The notes: generated from the letters alone by a model not told the origin. A stretch of DNA of 64,000 nucleotides from Candidatus Latescibacterota bacterium (GCA_965200315.1 OZ241362.1:4320001-4384000), one strand, 5' to 3'; positions 11,393 through 64,000 are shown, counted from the stretch's first letter. Program-made: numbers and translations.

Positions 11393-14335
11393 ATGATTTT
11401 TTTTGCTGGCATTCTCTTCTTTCTTTCCGGTGCTGCCGCTCTGGCGTACGAGGTGGTGTGGGTGAAACTTCTCACCCTCCAGTTCGGCAGCGCGGCGTGG
11501 TCAATTTCGACGGTGGTGGCCAGTTTCATGGCGGGTCTGGGAGCGGGGGGTGCTTGGGCCGGCCGTCGCGCCGACCGCATCCGCAGGCCCCTGAGAGCCT
11601 ATGCCCTCCTAGAGCTGGGCATCGCTTTCTTTGGCCTAGTCTCGGTGCCCCTCCTACGGAACATGGCCGGCGTCCTCGATCCCCTGTACCACCTCACCGA
11701 CGGGTACTTCGCCCTCTTCGTGCTACTGCAGTTTCTCCTCTCCGTCGCCATGCTGGCGGTGCCGACCTTCCTCATGGGTGCCTCCCTACCTCTGCTCATC
11801 GTGGCGGTTACAGAGGAAGCGGCCTTCCGCCGGAGCGTGGCCCTCTTCTACGGAATCAACACCCTTGGGGCGGCGGCCGGCACCCTCGTAGCAGGGCTCG
11901 TCCTGCTGCCCGTTCTCGGGATCTCCGACACGGTGTGGGTCGCCGTGGCCGCAGGCGTCTTGGTTGCTGCCGGGGGTTACCTCCTCGATCTCCGCATGGC
12001 CCCCCGGGACGCGACCGAGGAGCATCCAGCACCGACCGGCGGCACCCAGACCCCCCGGCTGCTGCTGGCTGCGGTGGCCATGGCCGGATGCTTGGGGCTC
12101 TTCTATCAGATCGCTTGGACGCGCCTACTCATCCCGGTGGTGGGATCCTCGGTCTACGCCTTCACCATCATCCTCACGACGGTCCTCCTCGGCATCGGCA
12201 TCGGCTCCCTGCTGGCCGCCGTCCCCTCCTTCCGGGAGAGCTCCTGCTGGCGGGCAGTGGCCGTCACGCTGGGGCTGGGCTCGTGCTCGGTCCTCGCAGG
12301 GCTGTTCGCCGTGAACGAGCTGCCGGCGATGTTCACGGCCATGGCCGAGGGCACGGGCGACCGCACTTGGCTTCTCTTCCTCTCCCAGGGCACTCTGGCG
12401 GCTTCCATCGTCCTCGTTCCCGCCTGCGCCATGGGGGCCGCCCTGCCCTTGGGCATCGCCGCGTGGCGGAACGAGGTGGGATCGAGAGGTTGGGCGGTTG
12501 GAGGCATGTACGCCGCCAACACCATAGGAGCCATTGTCGGCTCTGTATTGGCGGGCTTTGCGTTACTACCGTGGCTTGGAGCGACGGGGTTAATCCGCCT
12601 CGGTGCCACCCTCGGCATGGTGGTCACTGTCGTCCTTTTTCTATTGGACCGCACCAGCCCGCAACGACAGCGGCTCGGCTGGGCGGGCCTCTTCGCCGCA
12701 ATGCTTGCAGCATTCGCCTTCACGCTGCCCCAGACCGATATAAAAAACCTTCAGCGGGGCGTTTTCCGCAGGCTCCAAGCCAGCGAGGAGCGCTCGCCGA
12801 TAGGAAGTTTCCTGCTCTACGCACGGGAGGGGACCAACGCCACAGTTACCGTGTTTCGCACGCCCAACTCTACCGTGCTCAAGGTCAACGGCAAGGCGGA
12901 TGCCTCGACCGGTGGGGATATGGACTCGCAGTATCTGCTCGGACACCTGCCGATGTTCCTCCATCCAAGGCCGAAGGAGATTTGCATCATTGGCTACGGC
13001 AGTGGTGCCACGGTGTACGCAACAGCAACGCACCCGAATGTGACGGCCGTCGACGTGGTCGAAATTGAACAGGCGGTACTCGATGTTTCCGAGTACTTCA
13101 ACTCGGTCAACCACGGCATTCTTAAGGATTCGCGCGTGAGACTGCACACGGAAGATGGGCGCAATTTCCTCCGCCACCAGAAGAAGACGTACGACGTCAT
13201 CCTCTCCCAACCTTCCAACCCCTGGATAGCGGGTATCAGTTCCCTATTTACGACAGAGTACTACCGGGCCGCGTCGGCGCGGCTCAAGCCGGGTGGTCTT
13301 TTTTGCCAGTGGATGCAGGCCTATGAGACCTCTGCGGAGACGGTGCGCGTTGTGCTCCACACCCTAACATCGGAGTTTCCCTACGTGGCGGTGTTCAAAG
13401 TCTCCGATGACCTCATCTGCGTTGCCTCCCACTCCCCCATTGCAGGCTCTGCACGGCGTTACTCGGAGTACTTCTCGTTGCCGGGGGTGCGCAACTCACT
13501 CCGGCGAATCCAGATCGAGACCCCGTTCGACCTTTTCGCAAGTGCCTTCTTGCGATTTCCAGAAAACGCAGACGCGTTCAGGTCGCCGATCAGGAACACG
13601 GACGACAACCTCTGGCTGGAGTATCGAGCACCCATCGAGATGTACCAAGGGATGGAAGAGAACGTCGCGTCTATATTAAGCACCGATTACCTGCGCATGC
13701 TCCAACATCTTTTTCCCGAGCTAGCTCTCCGGGACATCGTCCTTGGGGTCGCCCAAAGCATCGCAACTAAACACTCTAATTTGTGGTATGTCATCCCCGC
13801 CTGGCAGGAGATGTTTGCAGAGGATGAGCCGTTGGCCTTGCGACTTGCGGAACTGGCCGCGCTGGCCGATTCGAGAAAGCGTGCGCTCGACGGCAACGAA
13901 GCACGGGAGAAAGCGGCGTTGCGCCTGATTCAAGAGCAGCGGTATGCCGAGGCGATTCCCATATTTGAGTCCGTACTTGCCGCCGAGCCTGAAAGCGTTT
14001 CCGCCCATCGCATGCTCGCTTGGGCCTTGTCGCATACCGGCGACAACAAAAGGGCGTGGCGGCACTACCTAAAGGCCATCCAGTACAATCCCGACGATTT
14101 TGAGTCGTACACTAATATGGCGGCCATTGCTCTTTCAAACGGCCTTTCCGAGGGAACCAAACTGTTGGACCGCGCACTTGCAGCCAATCCACATCACTTT
14201 ACCGCTTGGCGCGTCTATGTTGAGTACCTCGTGGATCAAAAGCAATACGATCAGGCTCGAGAACTCCTCAAAAAGACCGGGGAATCAATGGAAGGGGAAA
14301 AACTGAAAGCTCTCAAAAGCATGATCCCCGGATGA
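11393..14335 (+). CDS. Fused MFS-like membrane domain / spermidine synthase-like SAM domain with C-terminal TPRs
   Basis: SGAAALAYEVVW, PTFLMGASLP, YAANTIGAIVG membrane repeats; IIGYGSG, VVEIE, EDGRNFL, SQPSNPW; TPR-like helices at the C-terminus. Confidence 0.85.
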   Translation: MIFFAGILFFLSGAAALAYEVVWVKLLTLQFGSAAWSISTVVASFMAGLGAGGAWAGRRADRIRRPLRAYALLELGIAFFGLVSVPLLRNMAGVLDPLYHLTDGYFALFVLLQFLLSVAMLAVPTFLMGASLPLLIVAVTEEAAFRRSVALFYGINTLGAAAGTLVAGLVLLPVLGISDTVWVAVAAGVLVAAGGYLLDLRMAPRDATEEHPAPTGGTQTPRLLLAAVAMAGCLGLFYQIAWTRLLIPVVGSSVYAFTIILTTVLLGIGIGSLLAAVPSFRESSCWRAVAVTLGLGSCSVLAGLFAVNELPAMFTAMAEGTGDRTWLLFLSQGTLAASIVLVPACAMGAALPLGIAAWRNEVGSRGWAVGGMYAANTIGAIVGSVLAGFALLPWLGATGLIRLGATLGMVVTVVLFLLDRTSPQRQRLGWAGLFAAMLAAFAFTLPQTDIKNLQRGVFRRLQASEERSPIGSFLLYAREGTNATVTVFRTPNSTVLKVNGKADASTGGDMDSQYLLGHLPMFLHPRPKEICIIGYGSGATVYATATHPNVTAVDVVEIEQAVLDVSEYFNSVNHGILKDSRVRLHTEDGRNFLRHQKKTYDVILSQPSNPWIAGISSLFTTEYYRAASARLKPGGLFCQWMQAYETSAETVRVVLHTLTSEFPYVAVFKVSDDLICVASHSPIAGSARRYSEYFSLPGVRNSLRRIQIETPFDLFASAFLRFPENADAFRSPIRNTDDNLWLEYRAPIEMYQGMEENVASILSTDYLRMLQHLFPELALRDIVLGVAQSIATKHSNLWYVIPAWQEMFAEDEPLALRLAELAALADSRKRALDGNEAREKAALRLIQEQRYAEAIPIFESVLAAEPESVSAHRMLAWALSHTGDNKRAWRHYLKAIQYNPDDFESYTNMAAIALSNGLSEGTKLLDRALAANPHHFTAWRVYVEYLVDQKQYDQARELLKKTGESMEGEKLKALKSMIPG

Positions 14336-14384
14336 TGCTTTCTTGCGAGGTTATCCCGACAAACCCTTACATCAGGAGCAACGC

Positions 14385-15467
14385 ATGAGCCAATACAAAG
14401 CCGTCCTCATCGGCTGCAGCCGCATGGGGGCTTTCATCGACAACGAAGTTCCGGCCGATATGCGCCCGTACTCCCACGCCGCTGGGTACGAGGCTTGTGA
14501 GCGCACGGACCTCGTCGCCTGTTCGGACTTACGCCCCGAGGTGATGGAACGGGTCGGCGCGCGCTACGGCATCCCCGTGGACAAGCAGTACACTGACTAT
14601 CGCGAAATGCTCGCCCGCGAAAAGCCGGATATCGTCAGCGTCGCCACTCAGCCCGAGCACCGCGCCGAGATCGTCATTGCGGCAGTCGAAGCGGGTGCCC
14701 GCGCCATCTACGCGGAAAAAGCGTTCTCGGCCTCGCTGGAGGAAGCCGACCGCATGGTCGAAGCCTGCCAGCACCACAACATCGCGCTCAACATGGGCAC
14801 CAATCGCCGCTTCTATCCCGGCTACGACCAGATGAAAGCCGTCATCGACTCCGGGGAAATCGGCGCGTTGCAAACCCTCATCATTCACCAGACCAGTGCG
14901 CTGTTCAACGGCGCCAGCCACAGCTTTGACCTGCTCCAGCGCCTCAACTCCGACGCCCCGGCCGCTTGGGTACAGGCGCATTTGCCCAATGGCGACGAGA
15001 TCATCGACGGCCATATCCTGCGCGAGGACCCGACTGGGCACGGCATGATCCAGTTCGCCAATGGGGTTACTGCGTACGCGCTCAATTCGGGTCGGGGATT
15101 GGAAGTGGAGGCCGTCTGCGAAAAAGGCGTGGTGACGGCATTGGGCAATGATAGGGAGTGGCAGTTGCGGGCACCGGTAGCACGCGATCACCGGGGCCGC
15201 AATAAACTGGGCTTGGTGGAATTCCCTGCTTTCGAGCACCGGGCTTCAACGCTCTGCTTGGTCGAGGATTTGGTCCGCGCACTTGATACGGGCGAGCCTC
15301 CGCGCGGCGGTGCCGAGCTGGCGCGGGCTAATACCGAGCTGATTTTCGCGTTTGTCGAGTCGCACCAGCGCGGCGGTGCCCGCGTAGAGTTGCCGCTTGA
15401 CGGGAGCAAGTATCGACTAGAGCGGGATCGCGGGCCGAGGCAGCCCAAGTACGAGCCGGATGCTTAG
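14385..15467 (+). CDS. Gfo/Idh/MocA family oxidoreductase
   Basis: IGCSRMG, DIVSVAT, IYAEKA; RBS AGGAG before ATG 14385. Confidence 0.85.
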   Translation: MSQYKAVLIGCSRMGAFIDNEVPADMRPYSHAAGYEACERTDLVACSDLRPEVMERVGARYGIPVDKQYTDYREMLAREKPDIVSVATQPEHRAEIVIAAVEAGARAIYAEKAFSASLEEADRMVEACQHHNIALNMGTNRRFYPGYDQMKAVIDSGEIGALQTLIIHQTSALFNGASHSFDLLQRLNSDAPAAWVQAHLPNGDEIIDGHILREDPTGHGMIQFANGVTAYALNSGRGLEVEAVCEKGVVTALGNDREWQLRAPVARDHRGRNKLGLVEFPAFEHRASTLCLVEDLVRALDTGEPPRGGAELARANTELIFAFVESHQRGGARVELPLDGSKYRLERDRGPRQPKYEPDA

Positions 15468-54409: not shown

Positions 54410-55108
54410 ATGCGCATACTCGTAACCGGCGCGGCCGGTAGCGTCGGTTCTACTGTAGCCTGCGGTCTCAAGGGTCGCCACGAGGTGCGCGGCCACGACC
54501 GCGTGCCCATGCCCGATTTTGCCGATACGGTCGTCTCCGACCTTACCGACTTCGACGCCATACTAGAGGCTACTCGCGGTATGGACGCCGTTGCCCACAT
54601 TGGGGGCCTGCCCGGCGGCAGCGAGTGGGAGCCCATGATGGAGAGCAACTTCATCGGCACGTACAACGTCTTTGAGGCCGCCCGCCAAAACGGCGTCAAG
54701 CGCGTCGCCTATGCCAGCCGCGCCGGTGTCTTGAGTCTCTATCCGCGCAGCATTCACCGCACGGTTGATATGACTACTACCCCGGTGGGTATCTACACGG
54801 TCAGCAAGATCTTCGGCGAGGCGCTGGCCCACTCTTTTGCCCATCAGCACGATATGGAATTTGTCTGTGTGCGCATCGGCAACTTCAACCTCAAGCGCGA
54901 CCAGCCCGAACACCCGCACCATCTAAGCCACGGCGATTGCGTCCGGGTTTTTGAGCAGGCGCTGATTCATCCGGGCGTGAAGTTTGAAATCGTTTTTGGC
55001 GTGTCGGGTAGCAACTGGCCGCTCTACGATGTCGAACACGGCAAACGGGCGATTGGCTACGAGCCGCAGGATTATTCGGAGGTGCCGGAGGAGGAGTGGG
55101 GGAAGTAG
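54410..55108 (+). CDS. NAD-dependent epimerase/dehydrogenase (uronate dehydrogenase-like)
   Basis: TGAAGSVG, YTVSK, VRIG. Confidence 0.85.
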   Translation: MRILVTGAAGSVGSTVACGLKGRHEVRGHDRVPMPDFADTVVSDLTDFDAILEATRGMDAVAHIGGLPGGSEWEPMMESNFIGTYNVFEAARQNGVKRVAYASRAGVLSLYPRSIHRTVDMTTTPVGIYTVSKIFGEALAHSFAHQHDMEFVCVRIGNFNLKRDQPEHPHHLSHGDCVRVFEQALIHPGVKFEIVFGVSGSNWPLYDVEHGKRAIGYEPQDYSEVPEEEWGK

Positions 55109-55233
55109 GGCTGCTTAGCACCGATTACAGGAAGCCTTGTAACTACTAGAGCTAGTTACTCTTATTGAAGTGGCTGATAGTAATGAGTGCTTCGCTGATT
55201 GGAGCGACAAGCTATGAACACCATTCACACTTC

Positions 55234-55262
55234 TTGACGAGCTTCAGCATTAAGAGTATTAT
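55234..55262 (+). promoter_or_regulatory. Sigma70-type promoter of the dynamin operon
   Basis: TTGACG (55234-39), 17-bp spacer, TATTAT (55257-62), ~85 bp upstream of the ATG. Confidence 0.65.
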
Positions 55263-55348
55263 AAACCTCCAAGTCAAAACCCCGAGCCGAAGAAGCGTTC
55301 TTGAAATCTCTCCTTACTAGCTAATTTTATGAGAAGGAAAGTTGAGCA

Positions 55349-57442
55349 ATGGATTACGAAAAACTCAAATCACATCAGACGGTTTTGCTAGACGTTTATA
55401 CATCCTTGAGTGAAACCCTTGAAGAAAAGGGAGATGAGATCTATTCGGAACTAAAGGCGATGAATGAGAATATAGAGGCGGAAAAATTTTTGCTCGCCGT
55501 CGTTGGAGAAGTAAAAGCAGGAAAATCGACCTTTATTAACGCGCTGCTCGGAGAAGAAATGTTGCCTTTTGATACTTTGCAAGCCACCTCTGAGATAGTT
55601 GAGATTTGTCACTCCGAAAAAAAAGAAGTTCAAGTAACCTTCGCTAATGGCACAACGCAAATAGTTGAGGATGATCCAGAAACGCCCCAAAATGAAGTAG
55701 TGCCATTTCTTAAAGAGATTGCTTCTGTCAACGAGGAATATCGCGACATCCCAATCGTTCAGGTCAATAGATTCTTGATTGATCATTATAGAGAGGCGGA
55801 GAGAAAAGCTGTATTTGAGGAGGTAAAATTAGAGGATTTCATTTCTGATCCTAGGCTTGAAAATACACACAATCTGGGAAAAGAGGAATTTGGAAACAAA
55901 ATTCATGAGTATATCGAGAAAAATATCTCATGTGATGAGATTCCCGAAAGAATCACTCTCGGTTATCCACATACTTTTTCTGAGTTCAAGCACTTTAGGA
56001 TTGTAGATACTCCGGGGATCAATGCGATTGGCGGAATAGAGGACCAAACGAAGGAGTTTATAAACCAAGCTGATGCGGTTATCTATCTGCATAAAGCAGG
56101 TCAGCTAGAAAGTAAAGCACTCCGTGATGCATTAGAAAATGAACTTTCTGAAAGAGTTAAAGATCGTATGATACTCGTCTTGACTCATGGAAGTCAGAGT
56201 GATGAAAATGAACGTAAGAGAATATTAGAGGCGACTGATAGTTATTATTCTAAGATCGGTTCAGATAATATCTTTTTTGTCGATAGTCTGACTGAGTTGT
56301 ATCTGCAAATTTTTTTCTATAACAAATCGATAGACGAAATCAAGGCTATTCGCAGGGAATATCCAGAGATAAGACGTTTAACTGCTGATTGTTTTGAGAT
56401 GGCGGAAGGAGACCAAAACGAGTTTTTCAGATTGTTAGAAAAGCAGGCGAACTTCAATCCGATTCGAGAAAGAATTAAAAAGGATGCACAAAATTCTGCT
56501 TCTATTCAAATGAAGGACTTTGCCGATGCCATACAAGAGCAATATGAAGCTCTTAACAATGAAATGGATGCATACATAGAATTTTTAAAAAGAGAAAATC
56601 AATCCCCTCAGTCTTTTGCATCGGAGATAAAAAAACAGAAATGTGAAATGGAAAGAATGAGAATTGATTACAATGAATTTACATCCAAACTTAGGGAAGA
56701 ATTCTCTCCCCGCGGTATGAATAGCAGGTACTATAAAAAAATAGATAAATTAGTGAAAAAATTTATTAATGAAATCAGTATGAAAGAATTTGACCCCAAC
56801 CAGCATAATGAAAAAACTATCCTGTCTTATTGCGAGAAATTGCGCCAAGATTTTAGTGATAAAATAACCAATTTTGTTGATTCACTAGAGGCAGACTTTA
56901 AAAAAACAATAGTGGATAGAAATGTTGAAGCGCAAAGTGATTACTCAATAACCGTGCCAATAATACCTCTGGGCAAGATATGGAATACCGCGTTCTTTTC
57001 AGCCCAGAATGAGAAAAATAAGCAATTAGACGAAGTAGAGAAGAGTAAAAAATCTTGGTCTGATTATTGGGAGATGCCTTTTGGGACGTCAATTTTAGTT
57101 ATAATAATAGATATAATAAAAAAAGAAAAAATAAAAGACAACATAATAAAAGACTTTCCGCAAAATCTTTGGGATAAAGTGAAGGGAGAACTCAAATCAA
57201 ATATCATAAAGGGTAAAACACGATTACAAGAAGAAATTGATGCGATGGTAGAGAGGTTCTGTGACGAATATAAGTATGGATTCGGTGGAGAACTTAAAAG
57301 GCGAAAACAGGATATGGAGGATATTGAAAAGAAGGAAAAAACAAATGAAGAGTTACATGGGGATATTTTAACTATGGAAGCTGAAAAAAAAAGCATCGAA
57401 GCCAATATCGATAAATGTGTAAGCGTCAAAAGGGAGCTGTGA
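55349..57442 (+). CDS. Bacterial dynamin-like GTPase
   Basis: G1 GEVKAGKS, G2 QAT, G3 DTPG; long helical stalk with a hydrophobic paddle FGTSILVIIIDII. Confidence 0.9.
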   Translation: MDYEKLKSHQTVLLDVYTSLSETLEEKGDEIYSELKAMNENIEAEKFLLAVVGEVKAGKSTFINALLGEEMLPFDTLQATSEIVEICHSEKKEVQVTFANGTTQIVEDDPETPQNEVVPFLKEIASVNEEYRDIPIVQVNRFLIDHYREAERKAVFEEVKLEDFISDPRLENTHNLGKEEFGNKIHEYIEKNISCDEIPERITLGYPHTFSEFKHFRIVDTPGINAIGGIEDQTKEFINQADAVIYLHKAGQLESKALRDALENELSERVKDRMILVLTHGSQSDENERKRILEATDSYYSKIGSDNIFFVDSLTELYLQIFFYNKSIDEIKAIRREYPEIRRLTADCFEMAEGDQNEFFRLLEKQANFNPIRERIKKDAQNSASIQMKDFADAIQEQYEALNNEMDAYIEFLKRENQSPQSFASEIKKQKCEMERMRIDYNEFTSKLREEFSPRGMNSRYYKKIDKLVKKFINEISMKEFDPNQHNEKTILSYCEKLRQDFSDKITNFVDSLEADFKKTIVDRNVEAQSDYSITVPIIPLGKIWNTAFFSAQNEKNKQLDEVEKSKKSWSDYWEMPFGTSILVIIIDIIKKEKIKDNIIKDFPQNLWDKVKGELKSNIIKGKTRLQEEIDAMVERFCDEYKYGFGGELKRRKQDMEDIEKKEKTNEELHGDILTMEAEKKSIEANIDKCVSVKREL

Positions 57443-58086
57443 TGGAACTTATCCACGCTGAGTGCATTTTCGCTGATATAGAATCTCTGATACAAGAAGT
57501 TAAAACGTATTTCAATGATCTTGACTTACAGAATATAGAAAGCGAAATATACGCATCGAGAATCGCTAACGAATTGGCTACCCGTCTCGAAAATATCAAC
57601 GGCGTCATACAGACAACACTGCTGATATATCTGGACAAAGATGCACGAAAAGAGATTTCAGGCTGGAAGCCGGTAGATCAAAATCGCTACTATGATGAGG
57701 GAATCCGGGAAAAGATTTCGTCACAAATACGTGAAACAGATTCCTTTTCTCCTCAAATTTTGCCCAAGAAATACATCAAAATTGCCTCTGGTGTTATTGC
57801 TGCCGGAGGACTTTATCGCGCCTTTTCATCTCCTGTTTCCTTCTATTCTGGGACTTTTATTTTTGGGATGTGTGTTGTGGTTGTGGCAGCAGGTATGTTT
57901 TTTTTCATTCCTCGTGTCGTGGATAAGAGCAATAAGAATAAGACTTTAGAAGAATTAGGTATTTATCTTGATGCAGTCGAGAAGAGATATAAAGAGCAGG
58001 CCCAAAAAATTATTGATGAGTATGTCTCCCTCTTCAACGAAATAACACTTGCAAAGGAAAAAGACGGTGGCAAATCTCAACAATAA
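57442..58086 (+). CDS. Helical protein with two TM/hydrophobic segments
   Basis: TGATG coupling to the dynamin; IASGVIAAGGLY and FIFGMCVVVVAAGMFFFI. Confidence 0.75.
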   Translation: MELIHAECIFADIESLIQEVKTYFNDLDLQNIESEIYASRIANELATRLENINGVIQTTLLIYLDKDARKEISGWKPVDQNRYYDEGIREKISSQIRETDSFSPQILPKKYIKIASGVIAAGGLYRAFSSPVSFYSGTFIFGMCVVVVAAGMFFFIPRVVDKSNKNKTLEELGIYLDAVEKRYKEQAQKIIDEYVSLFNEITLAKEKDGGKSQQ

Positions 58087-61000
58087 ATCATTAGCTCTTG
58101 AAAAACAAAAGGTGCAGGACCGGAAAGAGGGCGCAGAAGAACTCAATAAAATTTTTTCAGACCTTCTACCTTGGACCATTGAATCAAAAGATGCTGATAT
58201 TCTGGCAGAAAATACGATACAGGATTGGGATGGAATCAAGGGATTTCTTGATCCGATTTACTTGTTTCATATCGAAGAAATTTCTATTTCCGCAGATGCC
58301 GAAGATACGGCTGATTTGATCCATAAAAGACACCAGGCAGCAATTGTCGCCGCCTATCGGTCAGGCTATACGCTTACGACGATCATTTCAGGCGATGGGG
58401 GCGGTACTGTTGACATTTTTCTCGGCGTTAGCGGTGAGCAGGACGTGAAGGAGGTATTTGAGAAGCAGTTATTGGGGGTTTATCCCGGCAAAGGCGTCAA
58501 CTTTATGGAGGAATCCCATAACGAAAGAATCATAAGGGACAAAATAAAAAAGAAGCAATATAAACATGGCGGAGTTCTTACAGGGATACCTACACAGAAA
58601 ATAGACGGGGAAAAGCAGACATTCGACCTATCTTCGGTTATAAGAGGCATGAATGGTCAGGAATTTCTCTTGGCGATTGTCTCCCGTCCAGTTAAGAAGT
58701 CTGAGGCAGCACAACAACTCAGCGAATTGATGGAACTAAAAGATCGGTGCCATGAACTGGCAATTAGGAACATCGGTTTTGATGAGAATGTAGGTGTAAA
58801 TCAGAGCCAAGCGGTTCAAGAAACAGTGGGTGAATATGTATCTTTGGCGATATTCGGTTCTATTTCTATGGGACCTATCGGTGGGGGAGGTTCCAAAACA
58901 AAAACAGAATTCTCAAGCCATTCGGAAACAGATACCACCGGCTGGTCGAAAAGCATTGGACAAAGGCTTTCTTACGAGGCGCAGAATACTCTTGCGATGG
59001 AGTTGGAACATATCGCAGATAAGTTGATCACTAGGTTGCGTAATGGTTTGAACACCGGAATTTGGGAAAGTTTTATCACGTATGCGACTACATCCTCTAC
59101 GGCTTCGCAGATTTTATCTGGTACTCTGGCGGGGGAACTCATCAAGGCTGATCCCGAAGCCCTGCCTATGCGAAATGTCGCCGATGAGCTATCTGAAGAA
59201 GTTCCGCTCTTTATTCCCAAGCAGAGAGATGAAAAATCTCTTATAAAGGGGAATAAATTATTGTCGTTCGTGTCGAGCGATGAAGCCGCACTGCTCATGG
59301 CACCGCCGCTTTCTTCTGTGCCTGGTTATGATATCCGTGTCAAACCCGCATTGAGTCTGACAGATACCACAGTCCGATTGGGTCATCCAATTGGTCGTGT
59401 TTCTGAGCATGGAAGAATTGTGGAAGGCTCTGAGTTTAGAATTTCAAGAGAGGATGCCCGGAAACACATTTTCGTTTCTGGTCTTACCGGATCGGGGAAG
59501 ACGACCACAGTCAAGCACATTCTGGATTGCATTGACACGCCTTTCTTGGTGATTGAATCTGCTAAAAAAGAATACCGCAGATTACTATCTGAGGATAAAT
59601 ACAGAGCAAGTTTATACGTATATACTGTTGGAGATTCAAACGTTTCACCGATACGCCACAACCCCTTTATGGTCCTTCCTGGAATATCTATCATCACCCA
59701 TATTGATAATCTCAAGTCTATTTTTTACGCAAGCTTCTCGCTTTATGGGCCGATGCCCTATATACTCGAAAAATGTATTTATAACATCTACAAAGAGCGC
59801 GATTGGAATCTGACTACGGGCAAGCATCACCGCGTTACAATAGAAACTTTCGAGGACTGTCAGAATCATCGCTTTATCTATCCCACCATCAGAGATTTGA
59901 TCGATGAAGTGAACCGATATGTACAGAAAGACCTAGAATATAAGGGAGAACTAAAAGACAATATTCGCAGTGCGATTGTCGCTCGTCTCGAATCGTTAGC
60001 TGTCGGCGCGAAAGGGTTTCTCTTTAACACACACGATGCGATTGACATAGAGGGCTTTCTAGATAGAAACGTTGTGCTTGAACTCGAATCTCTTTCCGAC
60101 GATGATGATAAAGCATTCTTTGTTGGTTTGATGCTCTCTCTGGTGAGCGAATATCGACAATCTTTGACCCGTCAGAGTACTTTGGATGCCAATGATGCTC
60201 TACAGCATGTTCTGGTCATTGAAGAAGCGCACAGGCTGCTTAAAAACGTACAGACCGAGCGCACCAGTGAAATGCTGGGCAATCCCAAAGGGAAAGCCGT
60301 GGAGTCTTTTTGCAACCTCATTGCCGAGATGCGGTCTTACGGCCAAGGCGTAATTGTTGCAGAGCAAATCCCCACGAAAATAGCTCCCGATGTGATCAAG
60401 AATACCAATACAAAAATTATTCACAGGCTCGTTTCTTTGGATGACCAAATCGCCGTAGGCACAGGATTGGGGCTAGAAGAACACGAGTGTCGCTATCTAA
60501 ATCAGCTTTCTGCTGGCACAGCACTTGCACATAAAGAAGGAATGTCAAAACCCGTCGAAATTTCCGTCTTTAATAAACTTCAGAATGAGCCAATGGGAGA
60601 TCTGCGAATCGAGCGTTTGGGCAAGGAAATCAATCCATATTTAGAAACAAAACTTGAACTACACGAGAGCGGCTTGTTAGAAAGCGAACATCTGAAAGCA
60701 ATCGCTCTGAGATTGGTCAATTCGTTTTTCCTCTCAAAATTTGAACTCGACGACCTATTGCCTGATGCAGTAACAACAGTCAAAAAGATAGAGCAACTTA
60801 CGTACGTCGCAGATGAAACCATAATTCGTGCATTGCGCGAATGGTTTTATCGAAGCTTATTTTCTTCAACTTTGGGTTTTGTGAAGGAAAAACCGATTGA
60901 CCAAGAGATTTTAAGTATTGTTAGTCGGCTTTGGGACGATTCTACTCGTTTTGATCGAGGAAGATTTATATATGAATTTGATAAGTGGCTGGGAGATTGT

Positions 61001-61159
61001 AGTCGAGATCGGATCAAGGAGAATATATCGGGCGATGTGATTTCTGAATACAGCGTGAAGAAGACAGAGATAGAGAAGATCGTTGACAAAATGCTGATTG
61101 TCGATGACCGAGAGATTAAACTAAAAATAATGACCGCTGTTAGAAAGAGGATTATGTGA
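58067..61159 (+). CDS. Large HerA/FtsK/VirB4-superfamily (DUF87-like) ATPase
   Basis: HIFVSGLTGSGKT (Walker A), VLVIEEAHRLL (Walker B), AEMRSYG (Arg finger), AEQIP, IKNTNTKIIHRL; ~440-aa N-terminal extension. Confidence 0.9.
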   Translation: MANLNNKSLALEKQKVQDRKEGAEELNKIFSDLLPWTIESKDADILAENTIQDWDGIKGFLDPIYLFHIEEISISADAEDTADLIHKRHQAAIVAAYRSGYTLTTIISGDGGGTVDIFLGVSGEQDVKEVFEKQLLGVYPGKGVNFMEESHNERIIRDKIKKKQYKHGGVLTGIPTQKIDGEKQTFDLSSVIRGMNGQEFLLAIVSRPVKKSEAAQQLSELMELKDRCHELAIRNIGFDENVGVNQSQAVQETVGEYVSLAIFGSISMGPIGGGGSKTKTEFSSHSETDTTGWSKSIGQRLSYEAQNTLAMELEHIADKLITRLRNGLNTGIWESFITYATTSSTASQILSGTLAGELIKADPEALPMRNVADELSEEVPLFIPKQRDEKSLIKGNKLLSFVSSDEAALLMAPPLSSVPGYDIRVKPALSLTDTTVRLGHPIGRVSEHGRIVEGSEFRISREDARKHIFVSGLTGSGKTTTVKHILDCIDTPFLVIESAKKEYRRLLSEDKYRASLYVYTVGDSNVSPIRHNPFMVLPGISIITHIDNLKSIFYASFSLYGPMPYILEKCIYNIYKERDWNLTTGKHHRVTIETFEDCQNHRFIYPTIRDLIDEVNRYVQKDLEYKGELKDNIRSAIVARLESLAVGAKGFLFNTHDAIDIEGFLDRNVVLELESLSDDDDKAFFVGLMLSLVSEYRQSLTRQSTLDANDALQHVLVIEEAHRLLKNVQTERTSEMLGNPKGKAVESFCNLIAEMRSYGQGVIVAEQIPTKIAPDVIKNTNTKIIHRLVSLDDQIAVGTGLGLEEHECRYLNQLSAGTALAHKEGMSKPVEISVFNKLQNEPMGDLRIERLGKEINPYLETKLELHESGLLESEHLKAIALRLVNSFFLSKFELDDLLPDAVTTVKKIEQLTYVADETIIRALREWFYRSLFSSTLGFVKEKPIDQEILSIVSRLWDDSTRFDRGRFIYEFDKWLGDCSRDRIKENISGDVISEYSVKKTEIEKIVDKMLIVDDREIKLKIMTAVRKRIM

Positions 61160-61704
61160 TGGTTATTGAGACCGCCGCAATAGGTACGATTGCCGCGGAA
61201 ACCGCTGAAGTTGCTGTTGTGGAAACCACAGAAGCGACAATTGCTGAGAGCCTCCCTGAAGTAAGTGGGGTAACGGAGTTGAGCGAGACTCTTTCTGCAA
61301 TCCAGAAAGAGGTCCCTCGGGAAATCCTCAACGAGAAGGTTGATACGATGCTCCAAGATGAGGCTTTTCGTGCTAAAATTTTGGAAGCAACATATCCCGA
61401 TTTCTCTGAACATTGTAGCTTTGAGACCTATCTTCCAAAGGAAAAATTCTTGGAAAGCGATTATCAGCATTTCAAATATTCTAACGAACAGTTGCACCAA
61501 GCCTGTGAAAATGGCCATCTCGATTCAGCTCAATTCACAGACAGGCAATTGGAACAGATCCGCAATGGAGATAAGCCCGAAGGATATACCTGGCACCACC
61601 ATGAAGAACCGGGACGCATGCAGTTGGTAGATTCTGAAATACACGCCAGGACCCCGCATACAGGTGGCCGTAGCTTGTGGGGTGGTGGAAGTGAAGCCAG
61701 ATAG
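61159..61704 (+). CDS. WHH-type HNH/EndoVII nuclease toxin with acidic N-terminal leader
   Basis: PEGYTWHHHEEPGRMQLVDSEIH..TPHTGGRSLWGGG; TGATG coupling to the ATPase. Confidence 0.9.
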   Translation: MVIETAAIGTIAAETAEVAVVETTEATIAESLPEVSGVTELSETLSAIQKEVPREILNEKVDTMLQDEAFRAKILEATYPDFSEHCSFETYLPKEKFLESDYQHFKYSNEQLHQACENGHLDSAQFTDRQLEQIRNGDKPEGYTWHHHEEPGRMQLVDSEIHARTPHTGGRSLWGGGSEAR

Positions 61705-61719
61705 CAAAGAGAGCACACT

Positions 61720-62118
61720 ATGAATTTAGAGTGGAAATACGTCGAACCATTGGATGAGAGCCAATTGTCTAAAATTGAGGATCATTTTGGCCTTAGATTG
61801 CCGGAGGATTACAAAAAATTACTTGGGGAATGCAATCGGGGAAAACCTACGTTAGAAAGGTTTGATACAGACCATCTAAAGGAATGTGTCCTCGATTATA
61901 TGATCGACCTTGAAGAAACGGTTGGCACAGCCCAAACGCTATCTTCTGAAAATGGTGTCAGTAACCTGATCCCCGTAGCACGCGATCCATTTGGGAATCT
62001 GATCGCCTTTCAGATAGCAGAGCAGCAGGTGGATGGGGTGGTGTTTTGGGATCACGAGCGAGGTAAAATTTCTAATATATCAGATAGCTTTACTGAATTC
62101 TTGAAGAAGCTATACTAA
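61720..62118 (+). CDS. SMI1/KNR4 (SUKH) immunity protein
   Basis: IEDHFGLRLPEDYKKLL..N.G, LIPVARDPFGNLIAF, VVFWDHE, SFTEFLKKLY; directly after the nuclease. Confidence 0.92.
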   Translation: MNLEWKYVEPLDESQLSKIEDHFGLRLPEDYKKLLGECNRGKPTLERFDTDHLKECVLDYMIDLEETVGTAQTLSSENGVSNLIPVARDPFGNLIAFQIAEQQVDGVVFWDHERGKISNISDSFTEFLKKLY

Positions 62119-62176
62119 GTGCGGATCGTATGATGTAGGATTGCTATCGTCCCCATTCTCCTGTACGCCAGTGCCT

Positions 62177-63369: not shown

Positions 63370-64000
63370 CTAAGGGCGCAGTGCCCGCTCGAGGTCGAGG
63401 CGACCGGCCTCCAAGGAGGTGCGGAAGACTTCGACCGTATCCCGGACTCCTTGGACCAGCGATCGATACTGAAGAGGTCCGAGGGCTTGGTTCAGGGCGC
63501 TGTCATCGGCACTCGAAGGATGCGGTAGCGGCGTCGGGTCGAATCCAATTTTGCCCGCCGACTCGGGGAGAACCTCCTCAATTGCAGCGACGATCTGGGC
63601 CATGGAGACCGTGCTGCCCCCCAGATTGTACACTGGGGCCCCTTCGAGCTTGGTCCTCGCCGCGGCGATAAAGGCGGCGGCGACATCATCGGCGTGGTGA
63701 TAGACGAGGGTGCCGCCATAGGTGATCTCGTACTCGCAACCGAGCGCGGCGGCCAGCATGGCCTTGGTCGGGGTGGAGGTCCAGCCTTGGTCGCGCCCCG
63801 GTCCGTACACTACGCACGGGCGCAGACCAATGCTATGCACCGACTGCTCCCGCCAATAGACCTGAGCGGTCCCTTCATTGCACTGCTTGAACACCCCGTA
63901 GAGAGTCGGAGGTAGCAGTGGAGCATCGTGGGCAAGTGGCCCCGGAGGGTACGCTTCCGGGTCGCCGTACACCCCAAACGAGCTTGCAAAGACCAAGTTC
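63370..64000 (-). CDS. NAD-dependent epimerase/dehydratase, 5' end outside the window
   Basis: ASSFGVYG, YGVFK, LRPCVVYGPG, YNLGG. Confidence 0.85.
   Translation of the reverse strand, partial: NLVFASSFGVYGDPEAYPPGPLAHDAPLLPPTLYGVFKQCNEGTAQVYWREQSVHSIGLRPCVVYGPGRDQGWTSTPTKAMLAAALGCEYEITYGGTLVYHHADDVAAAFIAAARTKLEGAPVYNLGGSTVSMAQIVAAIEEVLPESAGKIGFDPTPLPHPSSADDSALNQALGPLQYRSLVQGVRDTVEVFRTSLEAGRLDLERALRP

Follow-up and report, generated by a model that had tools for sequence, protein, structure and literature searches.

The locus described here raises the question of what a dynamin-like GTPase, a small membrane protein, a large ring-type ATPase, a nuclease toxin and its immunity protein do side by side in one block of five genes. 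The block lies in a 64,000-nucleotide stretch of the genome of a Candidatus Latescibacterota bacterium (GCA_965200315.1 OZ241362.1:4320001-4384000; this whole stretch is referred to as the window), and an earlier note made from the sequence alone had presented it as a candidate undescribed system. It is a conserved, horizontally mobile conflict module, the five genes of which are passed on and lost as a set and very probably form one co-functional system. All five open reading frames (ORFs) are present and intact on the same strand, as had been claimed:

55349..57442, plus strand: dynamin-like GTPase, 697 amino acids (aa) (Pfam Dynamin_N)
57442..58086, plus strand: small membrane protein, 214 aa (ATG at 57442; the ORF, 223 aa, opens at 57415)
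58067..61159, plus strand: VirB4-like ATPase, 1030 aa (GTG at 58067; the ORF, 1036 aa, opens with TTG at 58049)
61159..61704, plus strand: small nuclease toxin, 181 aa (Colicin-DNase/WHH; the ORF opens at 61156)
61720..62118, plus strand: SUKH (SMI1/KNR4) immunity protein, 132 aa (ATG at 61720; Pfam SUKH_6/SMI1_KNR4)

The junctions read as the earlier note had described them, with coupling at three and a short gap at the last. Genes 1 and 2 meet in a TGATG (57440-57444), so that gene 2 probably begins at ATG 57442, a methionine conserved almost without exception in the alignment of its family (A6). GTG 58067 of the ATPase gene lies 20 nucleotides (nt) within the end of gene 2, a second TGATG (61157-61161) joins the ATPase and toxin genes, and a 15-nt spacer precedes ATG 61720 of the immunity gene.

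Full-length relatives of the ATPase are numerous, with 1964 matches at E ≤ 0.001 out of 7997 candidates that were scored. When one genome per species was scanned with a profile, 52 loci were obtained, whose ORFs were labelled by BLASTP against the five window proteins; the synteny counts omit five loci that hold only an ATPase fragment. Of the 40 loci with at least 3 kb of upstream sequence, 38 encode a dynamin homologue no more than five ORFs upstream of the ATPase (the exceptions are L008 and L047), and of the 42 with at least 1.2 kb of downstream sequence, 41 have as their next downstream ORF a co-oriented one of 150 to 300 aa (the exception is L051). The gene between dynamin and ATPase encodes about 215 aa, with a hydrophobic stretch at approximately aa 110 to 175 in 33 of 39 related loci. 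The co-occurrence on which the earlier proposal hinged is therefore found, and so is the neighborhood that it had predicted, with the dynamin and two-transmembrane genes upstream and interchangeable toxin-immunity pairs downstream. The spacer that precedes the immunity gene, like the absence of direct evidence of interaction, would suit a toxin-immunity pair that had come by chance to lie beside an unrelated dynamin-ATPase operon, but the gene order is kept at these rates across many phyla, the ATPase stop codon overlaps the toxin start codon, and the N-terminal module of the toxin is specific to these loci, which leaves a chance association hardly credible.

The closest carriers are Latescibacterota, with 69 to 78% identity. 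Other bacterial carriers include Binatia, Bacteroidota, Beta-, Gamma-, Alpha- and Deltaproteobacteria, Campylobacterales, Planctomycetota, Cloacimonadota, Calditrichaeota, WOR-3 and Clostridia, and the archaeal ones include a Woesearchaeota bin and an “uncultured archaeon” bin; these taxa are the labels of the records, some of which are metagenome bins and may be misassigned. Among the culturable carriers are Halopseudomonas xiamenensis (L018), Advenella alkanexedens (L016), Thiofilum flexile (L017) and Tenacibaculum species. The unit is compact and widespread and also occurs in hosts that can be cultured, so that the question of its function is decidable by ordinary assays.

Nuclease and immunity genes are swapped as matched cassettes on a fixed three-gene core. 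The 47 fourth-gene proteins comprise 18 of the Colicin-DNase/WHH class, 12 with LHH, one with Endonuclea_NS_2 and 16 without a nuclease family, 14 of which form one family (A3). The 38 fifth-gene proteins are SUKH proteins in 25 cases, DUF7832 in eight and DUF1232 in one, with no family for the other four. The top family of the partner is SUKH_5 for 12 of 12 LHH toxins and either SUKH_6 or SMI1_KNR4 for WHH toxins (loci whose fifth gene was scanned), the Endonuclea_NS_2 toxin is paired with DUF1232, and toxins without a nuclease family are paired with DUF7832 in eight cases.

The exchange is also apparent when the percent identity of each protein is compared between pairs of loci, with the toxin split into its first 70 and last 90 residues. 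Between L014 and L019, identity is 76% for the ATPase, 71% for the dynamin, 66% for the membrane protein and 54% for the first part of the toxin, whereas it is 17% for the last part and 19% for the immunity protein. The pair L029 and L038 behaves likewise (72, 69, 56 and 43% versus 19 and 24%). L016 and L018 present the converse, a cassette more similar than the core, with 83% identity for the ATPase, 58% for the dynamin, 64% for the membrane protein and 67% for the toxin N terminus, but 97% for the toxin C terminus and 92% for the immunity protein.

The N-terminal 55 to 80 residues of the toxins are, by profile comparison, homologous across the classes and specific to this system; in the window, aa 1 to about 80 of the toxin are the module common to the LHH and unnamed toxins of related loci. 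A hidden Markov model of one class finds the other classes with E values down to 1e-14, and hhalign gives 96% for LHH with unnamed, 88% for WHH with unnamed and 29% for WHH with LHH, the last value being low because the Latescibacterota N termini are divergent. A start of Met, one or two hydrophobic residues and then Glu is conserved in the alignment of the module, which also contains a Ser-Leu-Glu ... Asn-Glu motif. When its profile was searched against longer proteins, 35 were found, all of 175 to 290 aa and with LHH, WHH or no family; no further effector type was seen among them in this search of limited sensitivity. One of these proteins shares 85% identity at its N terminus with an LHH-type toxin, yet carries a WHH domain.

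The A3 toxins have no match by sequence in the Protein Data Bank (PDB; best E value, 0.47), and no Pfam family is common to more than two of the 14 members at E ≤ 1. Their first neighbors in the Atlas are unnamed clusters (best, 0.96), followed by Tox-REase-7 (0.87) and Tox-REase-2 (0.86), against a line of 0.9. These neighbors, together with conserved acidic motifs, offer the lead that A3 toxins possibly have a restriction-endonuclease fold. The swapped cassettes define both a new toxin-adaptor module and a toxin-immunity pair without a family name (A3 with DUF7832).

In Pfam, the 1036-aa ATPase ORF gives only weak P-loop matches (AAA_22, DUF87, HerA_C, T2SSE and TrwB_AAD_bind). An AlphaFold2 model built from 67 sequences, with a mean pLDDT of 81.7, predicts the following parts:

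aa 1-58: N-terminal helix
aa 59-436: VirB4-NTD-like domain
aa 243-296 (window 58775-58936, plus strand): loop of about 55 residues rich in Ser, Thr and Gly, predicted to be disordered, which interrupts the N-domain
aa 437-847: ATPase core
aa 848-1036: helical C-terminal domain of about 190 aa

The predicted core aligns best with VirB4 (4ag5_A; Z score of 31.6, root mean square deviation [rmsd] of 3.1 over 350 residues), followed by the C-terminal part of DndH (7es4; Z score of 30.4) and HerA (4d2i; Z score of 26.8). The HerA-effector complexes 8xav, 8wld, 8ziq and 8j4u score between 21 and 25, and TrwB (23.3), FtsK (17.3) and EccC (16.9) are lower-ranked matches. The N-terminal 466 residues, modelled alone (pLDDT of 79.3), align with TrwK/VirB4 of R388 (7o42_A) with a Z score of 15.6 and an rmsd of 3.5 over 256 residues, model residues 59 to 426 lying on residues 16 to 401 of the chain; among 48,161 representative chains, the runner-up reaches 8.1. 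In a Foldseek search with this domain, all 12 matches at E ≤ 0.001 were TrwK chains. Because both domains match VirB4 structures, the ATPase is, as far as the predicted models go, a full-length structural homologue of VirB4. The earlier note had called it a giant HerA-like ATPase; the superfamily assignment holds, and VirB4 gives the better label.

Membership in the HerA/FtsK/VirB4 ring ATPases is further indicated by the modelled P-loop core, the Walker A motif and an acidic Walker B, with G478 to T485 of Walker A and E725-E726 invariant in the 67 sequences. The N-terminal helix and the C-terminal domain are the least conserved parts (16 to 17% identity in the distant group versus 56% in the core). 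Profile libraries place the protein outside their curated families. PADLOC HerA models match its C-terminal half (best E value, 1.3e-13), the PADLOC mad8 model only the core (aa 471-838; E value of 5.1e-16), and NCBIfam CedD matches with an E value of 5e-17. The NCBIfam models HerA_antiphage (34.3 bits versus a cutoff of 800), HerA_antiphage_2 (19.4 versus 850) and the curated VirB4 model NF045975 VirB4_plasma (32.5 versus 590) are missed, and no Pfam VirB4 family matches at E ≤ 0.1. The N-domain alone retrieved 155 cluster representatives at E ≤ 0.001, 24 of them at E ≤ 1e-30, out of 1.84 billion, and the relatives that cover most of the query are nearly all of about 900 to 1130 aa. A partial match to NF033849, annotated as a serine-rich protein, spans aa 251 to 811 of the ATPase and thus begins inside the Ser/Thr/Gly loop.

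The first gene matches Pfam Dynamin_N over aa 49 to 279 (E value of 1.1e-19; 71.5 bits versus a cutoff of 27), and its nearest solved relative is the Nostoc protein BDLP (2j68; E value of 2.1e-10, GTPase region only). The PADLOC LeoBC model matches it with an E value of 6e-14, and LeoBC, LeoA and LeoC all cover only parts of the GTPase region (aa 17-280). Gene 2 encodes the only one of the five proteins with a hydrophobic stretch. This stretch, of about 33 aa (aa 139-171 of the 223-aa ORF), is flanked by helical N- and C-terminal parts and is, from its length, sufficient for a putative membrane hairpin. The gene 2 family has no match in Pfam, NCBIfam or PADLOC, and in the Atlas it finds unnamed clusters only, the nearest named one (Fzo_mitofusin, 0.77) being at chance level. 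A complex predicted between the hairpin protein (A6) and the N-domain of the ATPase (A4) scored 0.00 in a run lacking controls, a value that speaks neither for nor against an interaction. In two Latescibacterota loci (L007 7044-8943 and L012 6810-8699), the usual hairpin protein of 215 aa is replaced, between dynamin and ATPase, by two ORFs of about 250 and 290 aa without a Pfam family. In a Pseudomonadales locus (L046 13502-15592), a second dynamin-family gene, of 696 aa, lies two ORFs 3′ of the toxin gene, besides the upstream one.

In the window toxin, Colicin-DNase (aa 80-170; E value of 9.5e-25) and WHH (aa 138-177; E value of 6.4e-19) are the only domains that Pfam gives, and the immunity protein matches SUKH_6 (E value of 2.5e-20) and SMI1_KNR4 (E value of 8.3e-18). 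The claim of the earlier note that the toxin lacks a signal peptide and RHS, LXG, WXG100 and PAAR domains agrees with this: Pfam gives no export-linked domain, and a hydrophobicity scan, no dedicated signal-peptide predictor having been run, gives no hydrophobic N-terminal segment.

The context of the module suggests a function in anti-phage or anti-plasmid defense at the membrane, a reading that we prefer with about even confidence. In such a system, the hairpin protein would anchor the ATPase ring to the cytoplasmic membrane in the way that VirB3 holds VirB4, the N-terminal module of the toxin would dock the immunity-bound DNase onto the core, and the dynamin would sense, mark or stabilize a membrane site disturbed by DNA entry. 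The motor might then strip the DNase from its immunity protein, leading to the breakdown of DNA inside the infected cell, or might reel in the invading DNA and feed it to the tethered DNase. Defense is favored because the neighborhoods are rich in defense genes and have WYL regulators nearby, because the distribution is patchy with frequent decay, because every identifiable effector is a nuclease, and because the same five genes serve different envelopes and no channel or outer membrane part was found with them.

For 22 loci with long flanks, the three called ORFs to either side of the module (103 proteins) were compared with the PADLOC 2023 library at E ≤ 1e-10. At least one neighbor matches in 15 of the 22 loci, or in 13 without the RtcR-like (L011) and IetA-like (L025) matches, which are weaker and better not counted. 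These neighbors include restriction-modification genes of type I (L016 and L047) and of type III together with an HKD-Snf2 helicase (L029 and L039), as well as GmrSD (L039), Cas1 (L035), ZorE (L020), DruE/DruF (L047), NERD-UvrD (L013) and PD-Lambda-2 (L018); the candidate defense genes PDC-S18, PDC-S14 and PDC-S05 are also found (L014, L016 and L047). A Pfam scan of the neighbors agrees with this picture, and WYL regulators are encoded near the module in six loci (L010, L015, L018, L020, L028 and L032). In two Tenacibaculum loci (L029 4369-16243 and L039 4287-16300), the module lies between the mod gene and the res gene of a type III system. Downstream of both Tenacibaculum modules is the HKD-Snf2 helicase, together with DUF4391 in L029 and GmrSD in L039. 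Neighbors in 15 further loci, 10 of them from Latescibacterota and including L001, are mostly housekeeping genes; in L001, AbiEi/AbiEii adjoin the module and add to its defense context.

Several points weigh against defense. Seven of the 22 loci have no PADLOC-matching neighbor (L017, L021, L024, L030, L037, L041 and L046), the rate of 15 in 22 lacks a matched background and is hence uncalibrated, and the flanks of the module in the window itself are housekeeping genes. The archaeal assignments and some others rest on metagenome-bin labels, and the reason why a defense nuclease would need a tight, co-swapped immunity protein is one that we can only infer. In addition, VirB4 is a secretion ATPase, a conserved N-terminal module with swapped toxin ends is a hallmark of exported polymorphic toxins, and WHH, LHH and SUKH are, in the sections of PMC3113570 considered here, classic domains of interbacterial toxins.

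These last three observations, with the type IV secretion ATPase fold predicted for both domains of the motor and the co-swapping of immunity genes, also speak for a self-contained delivery of toxin between cells. The N-terminal module would then be an export signal for the membrane-anchored VirB4-like motor, which would strip the immunity protein and export the DNase, the dynamin would vesiculate, tether or fuse membranes, and the immunity protein would protect kin. The hairpin gene precedes the ATPase gene as virB3 precedes virB4. Toxin secretion and virulence, moreover, were the first functions associated with the Leo dynamins of Escherichia coli, according to the work cited in the sections considered of 10.1101/2022.05.11.491447.

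Against delivery stands the absence of channel, pilus, outer membrane and coupling genes from the window flanks and from 103 + 51 neighboring ORFs of related loci, among which there were also no extra orphan toxin, SUKH or immunity cassettes (0 of 154). The earlier statement that no T6SS or T7SS genes are nearby likewise holds for the five flanking ORFs checked. By record labels, the same gene set occurs in diderms, Clostridia and archaea, a spread that fits poorly with an export route across the whole envelope. The toxins, of only 161 to 290 aa, have no receptor-binding or translocation domain, and all 31 effectors with a family assignment are nucleases, whereas exported polymorphic toxins usually show many activities. 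Finally, the neighborhoods are rich in defense genes, and the dynamin would have to get a 20-kDa DNase into another cell. We regard delivery as a tentative possibility, and, of the two functions that the earlier note had offered, the context leans toward action against mobile elements and away from a self-contained export machine.

A particular form of export, in which the module is a new translocation machine, is unlikely in our judgment. Here, the hairpin-anchored VirB4-like motor would read the N-terminal tag, strip the immunity protein and thread the DNase across a junction made by the dynamin through tethering or fusing two cells or a vesicle. The cytoplasmic membrane would suffice for this, and therefore the same genes could work in diderms, monoderms and archaea. 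If the module does deliver toxins, secretion by it would not depend on the type of envelope. If defense is its function, the module would unite dynamin membrane surveillance, ring ATPase-effector complexes and immunity-gated polymorphic nucleases, so far studied apart, and a VirB4 homologue would gain a role outside conjugation and secretion.

The decay of the module bears on a further explanation, in which the nuclease-immunity pair is the addiction cassette of a mobile island and the core serves the uptake or transfer of island DNA. Toxin and immunity genes outlast the core in decayed loci. In genome G048 (L057 6787-7641), toxin aa 36 to 182 and the full immunity gene remain, with no dynamin, gene 2 or ATPase match in the 14 kb around the locus, and in L050 the toxin-immunity pair lies beside a 173-aa ATPase fragment. 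Furthermore, the relatives of the ATPase core (VirB4, TrwB, FtsK and HerA, as well as the CedD match) move DNA, and the block is unevenly spread among relatives and has an unusual G+C content. At E ≤ 1e-30, 12 of 61 related genomes carry the ATPase, its own genome included, as do five of 30 others of the same genus; of the 46 loci whose flanks could be measured, 42 have a block lower in G+C than its flanks, the difference being at least 0.03 in 28. However, the window block contains no integrase, relaxase, replication gene or terminal repeats, is only 7 kb long and carries no cargo, and the toxin module is conserved along with the core, which argues that toxin and core work together. We consider an addiction cassette improbable. 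Genome G047 (L058 6610-7056) presents a deletion scar, in which dynamin aa 1 to 62 are joined to aa 34 to 132 of the immunity protein (its last 99 residues). Immunity homologues without the ATPase occur among the relatives in these two deletion remnants, G047 and G048, and as a partial match in G008.

A close analogy among known systems is the pair VirB3-VirB4 (TrwM-TrwK of R388). VirB3 is a small hairpin protein that holds VirB4 at the membrane in type IV systems and is often encoded just upstream. The predicted ATPase structure matches both VirB4 domains, and the small hairpin protein of the module is likewise encoded just upstream, in a gene overlapping that of the ATPase; it would thus occupy a VirB3-like position by analogy, with homology not demonstrated. 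In contrast to type IV secretion systems, the module has none of the channel, pilus and coupling genes looked for in its surroundings, and its operon partners are a dynamin and a nuclease. Its ATPase differs from VirB4 in the extra N-terminal helix, the disordered loop and the helical C-terminal domain, and its hairpin protein has no detectable likeness to a named family.

Like Nezha (SIR2-HerA and DUF4297-HerA) and HerA-NurA, the module encodes a ring ATPase of the same superfamily together with an effector or nuclease. Its effector is, however, a Colicin-DNase/WHH or LHH protein with dedicated immunity and not SIR2 or DUF4297, the curated HerA models are missed by the wide margin already given (34 bits versus 800), the N-domain is VirB4-like, and a dynamin and a membrane protein are added. 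With Eleos/LeoABC and DynA of Bacillus subtilis it shares a bacterial dynamin-like GTPase in a defense-island setting. In the sections considered of 10.1101/2022.05.11.491447, which reports 21 new defense systems, a two-dynamin operon, the only dynamin operon described, confers protection against jumbo phages and lies beside known defense systems in 60% of cases. Whereas Eleos consists of two dynamin genes only, the module has one Dynamin_N protein, its Leo match is confined to the GTPase region, and an ATPase, a nuclease and an immunity gene are added. As for MADS, mad8 matches only the ATPase core, and no other mad model matches apart from a weak match of the dynamin.

The polymorphic toxins with SUKH immunity described by Zhang, Iyer and Aravind in 2011 (PMC3113570) resemble the module in that a C-terminal WHH or LHH toxin is followed by a SUKH gene, and in the shared N-terminal module with exchangeable toxin ends and immunity genes swapped along. 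They differ, as far as the sections considered go, in that the N-terminal module here is none of WXG/ESAT-6, LXG, LDXD, the TpsA signal or RHS repeats and the toxins are single small proteins; the words “dynamin” and “GTPase” are absent from the paper. Colicin DNase-immunity pairs share with the window the Colicin-DNase match and an immunity gene directly downstream, but the toxin of the module has no receptor-binding or translocation domains and its immunity protein is SUKH, not of the colicin Im family. By its likenesses, the module would act as a cross between a HerA-effector complex, the dynamin defenses Eleos/DynA and a polymorphic toxin-immunity pair, on a VirB3/VirB4-like base. It is a member of none of these, since a defining feature of each was looked for and was absent.

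None of the complete system models in PADLOC (2023), NCBIfam and PHROGs is matched by the five proteins, so that the locus does not coincide with a system defined there. No published link between a dynamin, a HerA/FtsK/VirB4 ATPase and either WHH/LHH/SUKH or polymorphic toxins was found in the literature searched, which did not extend to subscription journals and preprint supplements; a candidate listing of this gene set in such supplements may exist. With neither a complete model nor a description found, the label of candidate undescribed system stands.

The remaining features of the window concern the insertion of the block into its surroundings:

55110..62176, no strand: low-G+C island (G+C of 0.34 to 0.45 versus 0.60 to 0.63 in the flanks)
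55234..55262, plus strand: sigma-70-like site TTGACG-17-TATTAT (10 of 12 matches; 87 nt 5′ of the first ATG)

The AT-rich block noticed earlier is thus real on both sides, and along the window the drop is confined to the five-gene stretch, with G+C back up at about 62.2 kb. The near-consensus sigma-70 site is present as well, and is a possible promoter; however, promoter-like sites in the region number 15 versus 14.6 ± 3.6 in shuffled sequence, so that the site alone is no evidence. No tRNA gene was found within the window, and no direct or inverted repeat pairs above chance-sized matches bracket the block. The module is a single copy in this genome, and its flanking ORFs are metabolism genes, an epimerase gene upstream and an MR_MLE enolase-family gene downstream. 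Two epimerase-family ORFs flank the island on opposite strands (54410-55108, plus; 63370-63996, minus, beyond the MR_MLE gene); one matches positions 1 to 185 of a 240-position profile, the other 111 to 240, and they are probably unrelated genes. L001 has the same three upstream genes as the window. In L001, a nucleotidyltransferase gene and AbiEi/AbiEii follow the module (13114-15115) where the window has the MR_MLE gene, so that the same site holds islands of different content.

The module is essentially absent from viral contigs, which gave one distant relative with 25% identity, and four of the five proteins have no PHROG beyond weak core or SUKH matches. On plasmids, 43 records hold a match, none covering 80% of the query and all below 60% identity, and no annotated dynamin is present in the two plasmid contexts examined. 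The first of these, a 300-kb plasmid of Photobacterium damselae (L055 3011-10416), encodes an ATPase relative with 28% identity over aa 106 to 836 that follows a 1247-aa DUF2357 protein, with csm6 close by; more distant members of the ATPase family may take part in further conflict operons. The second resembles a conjugation-type gene cluster (PLSDB typing, MPF_T).

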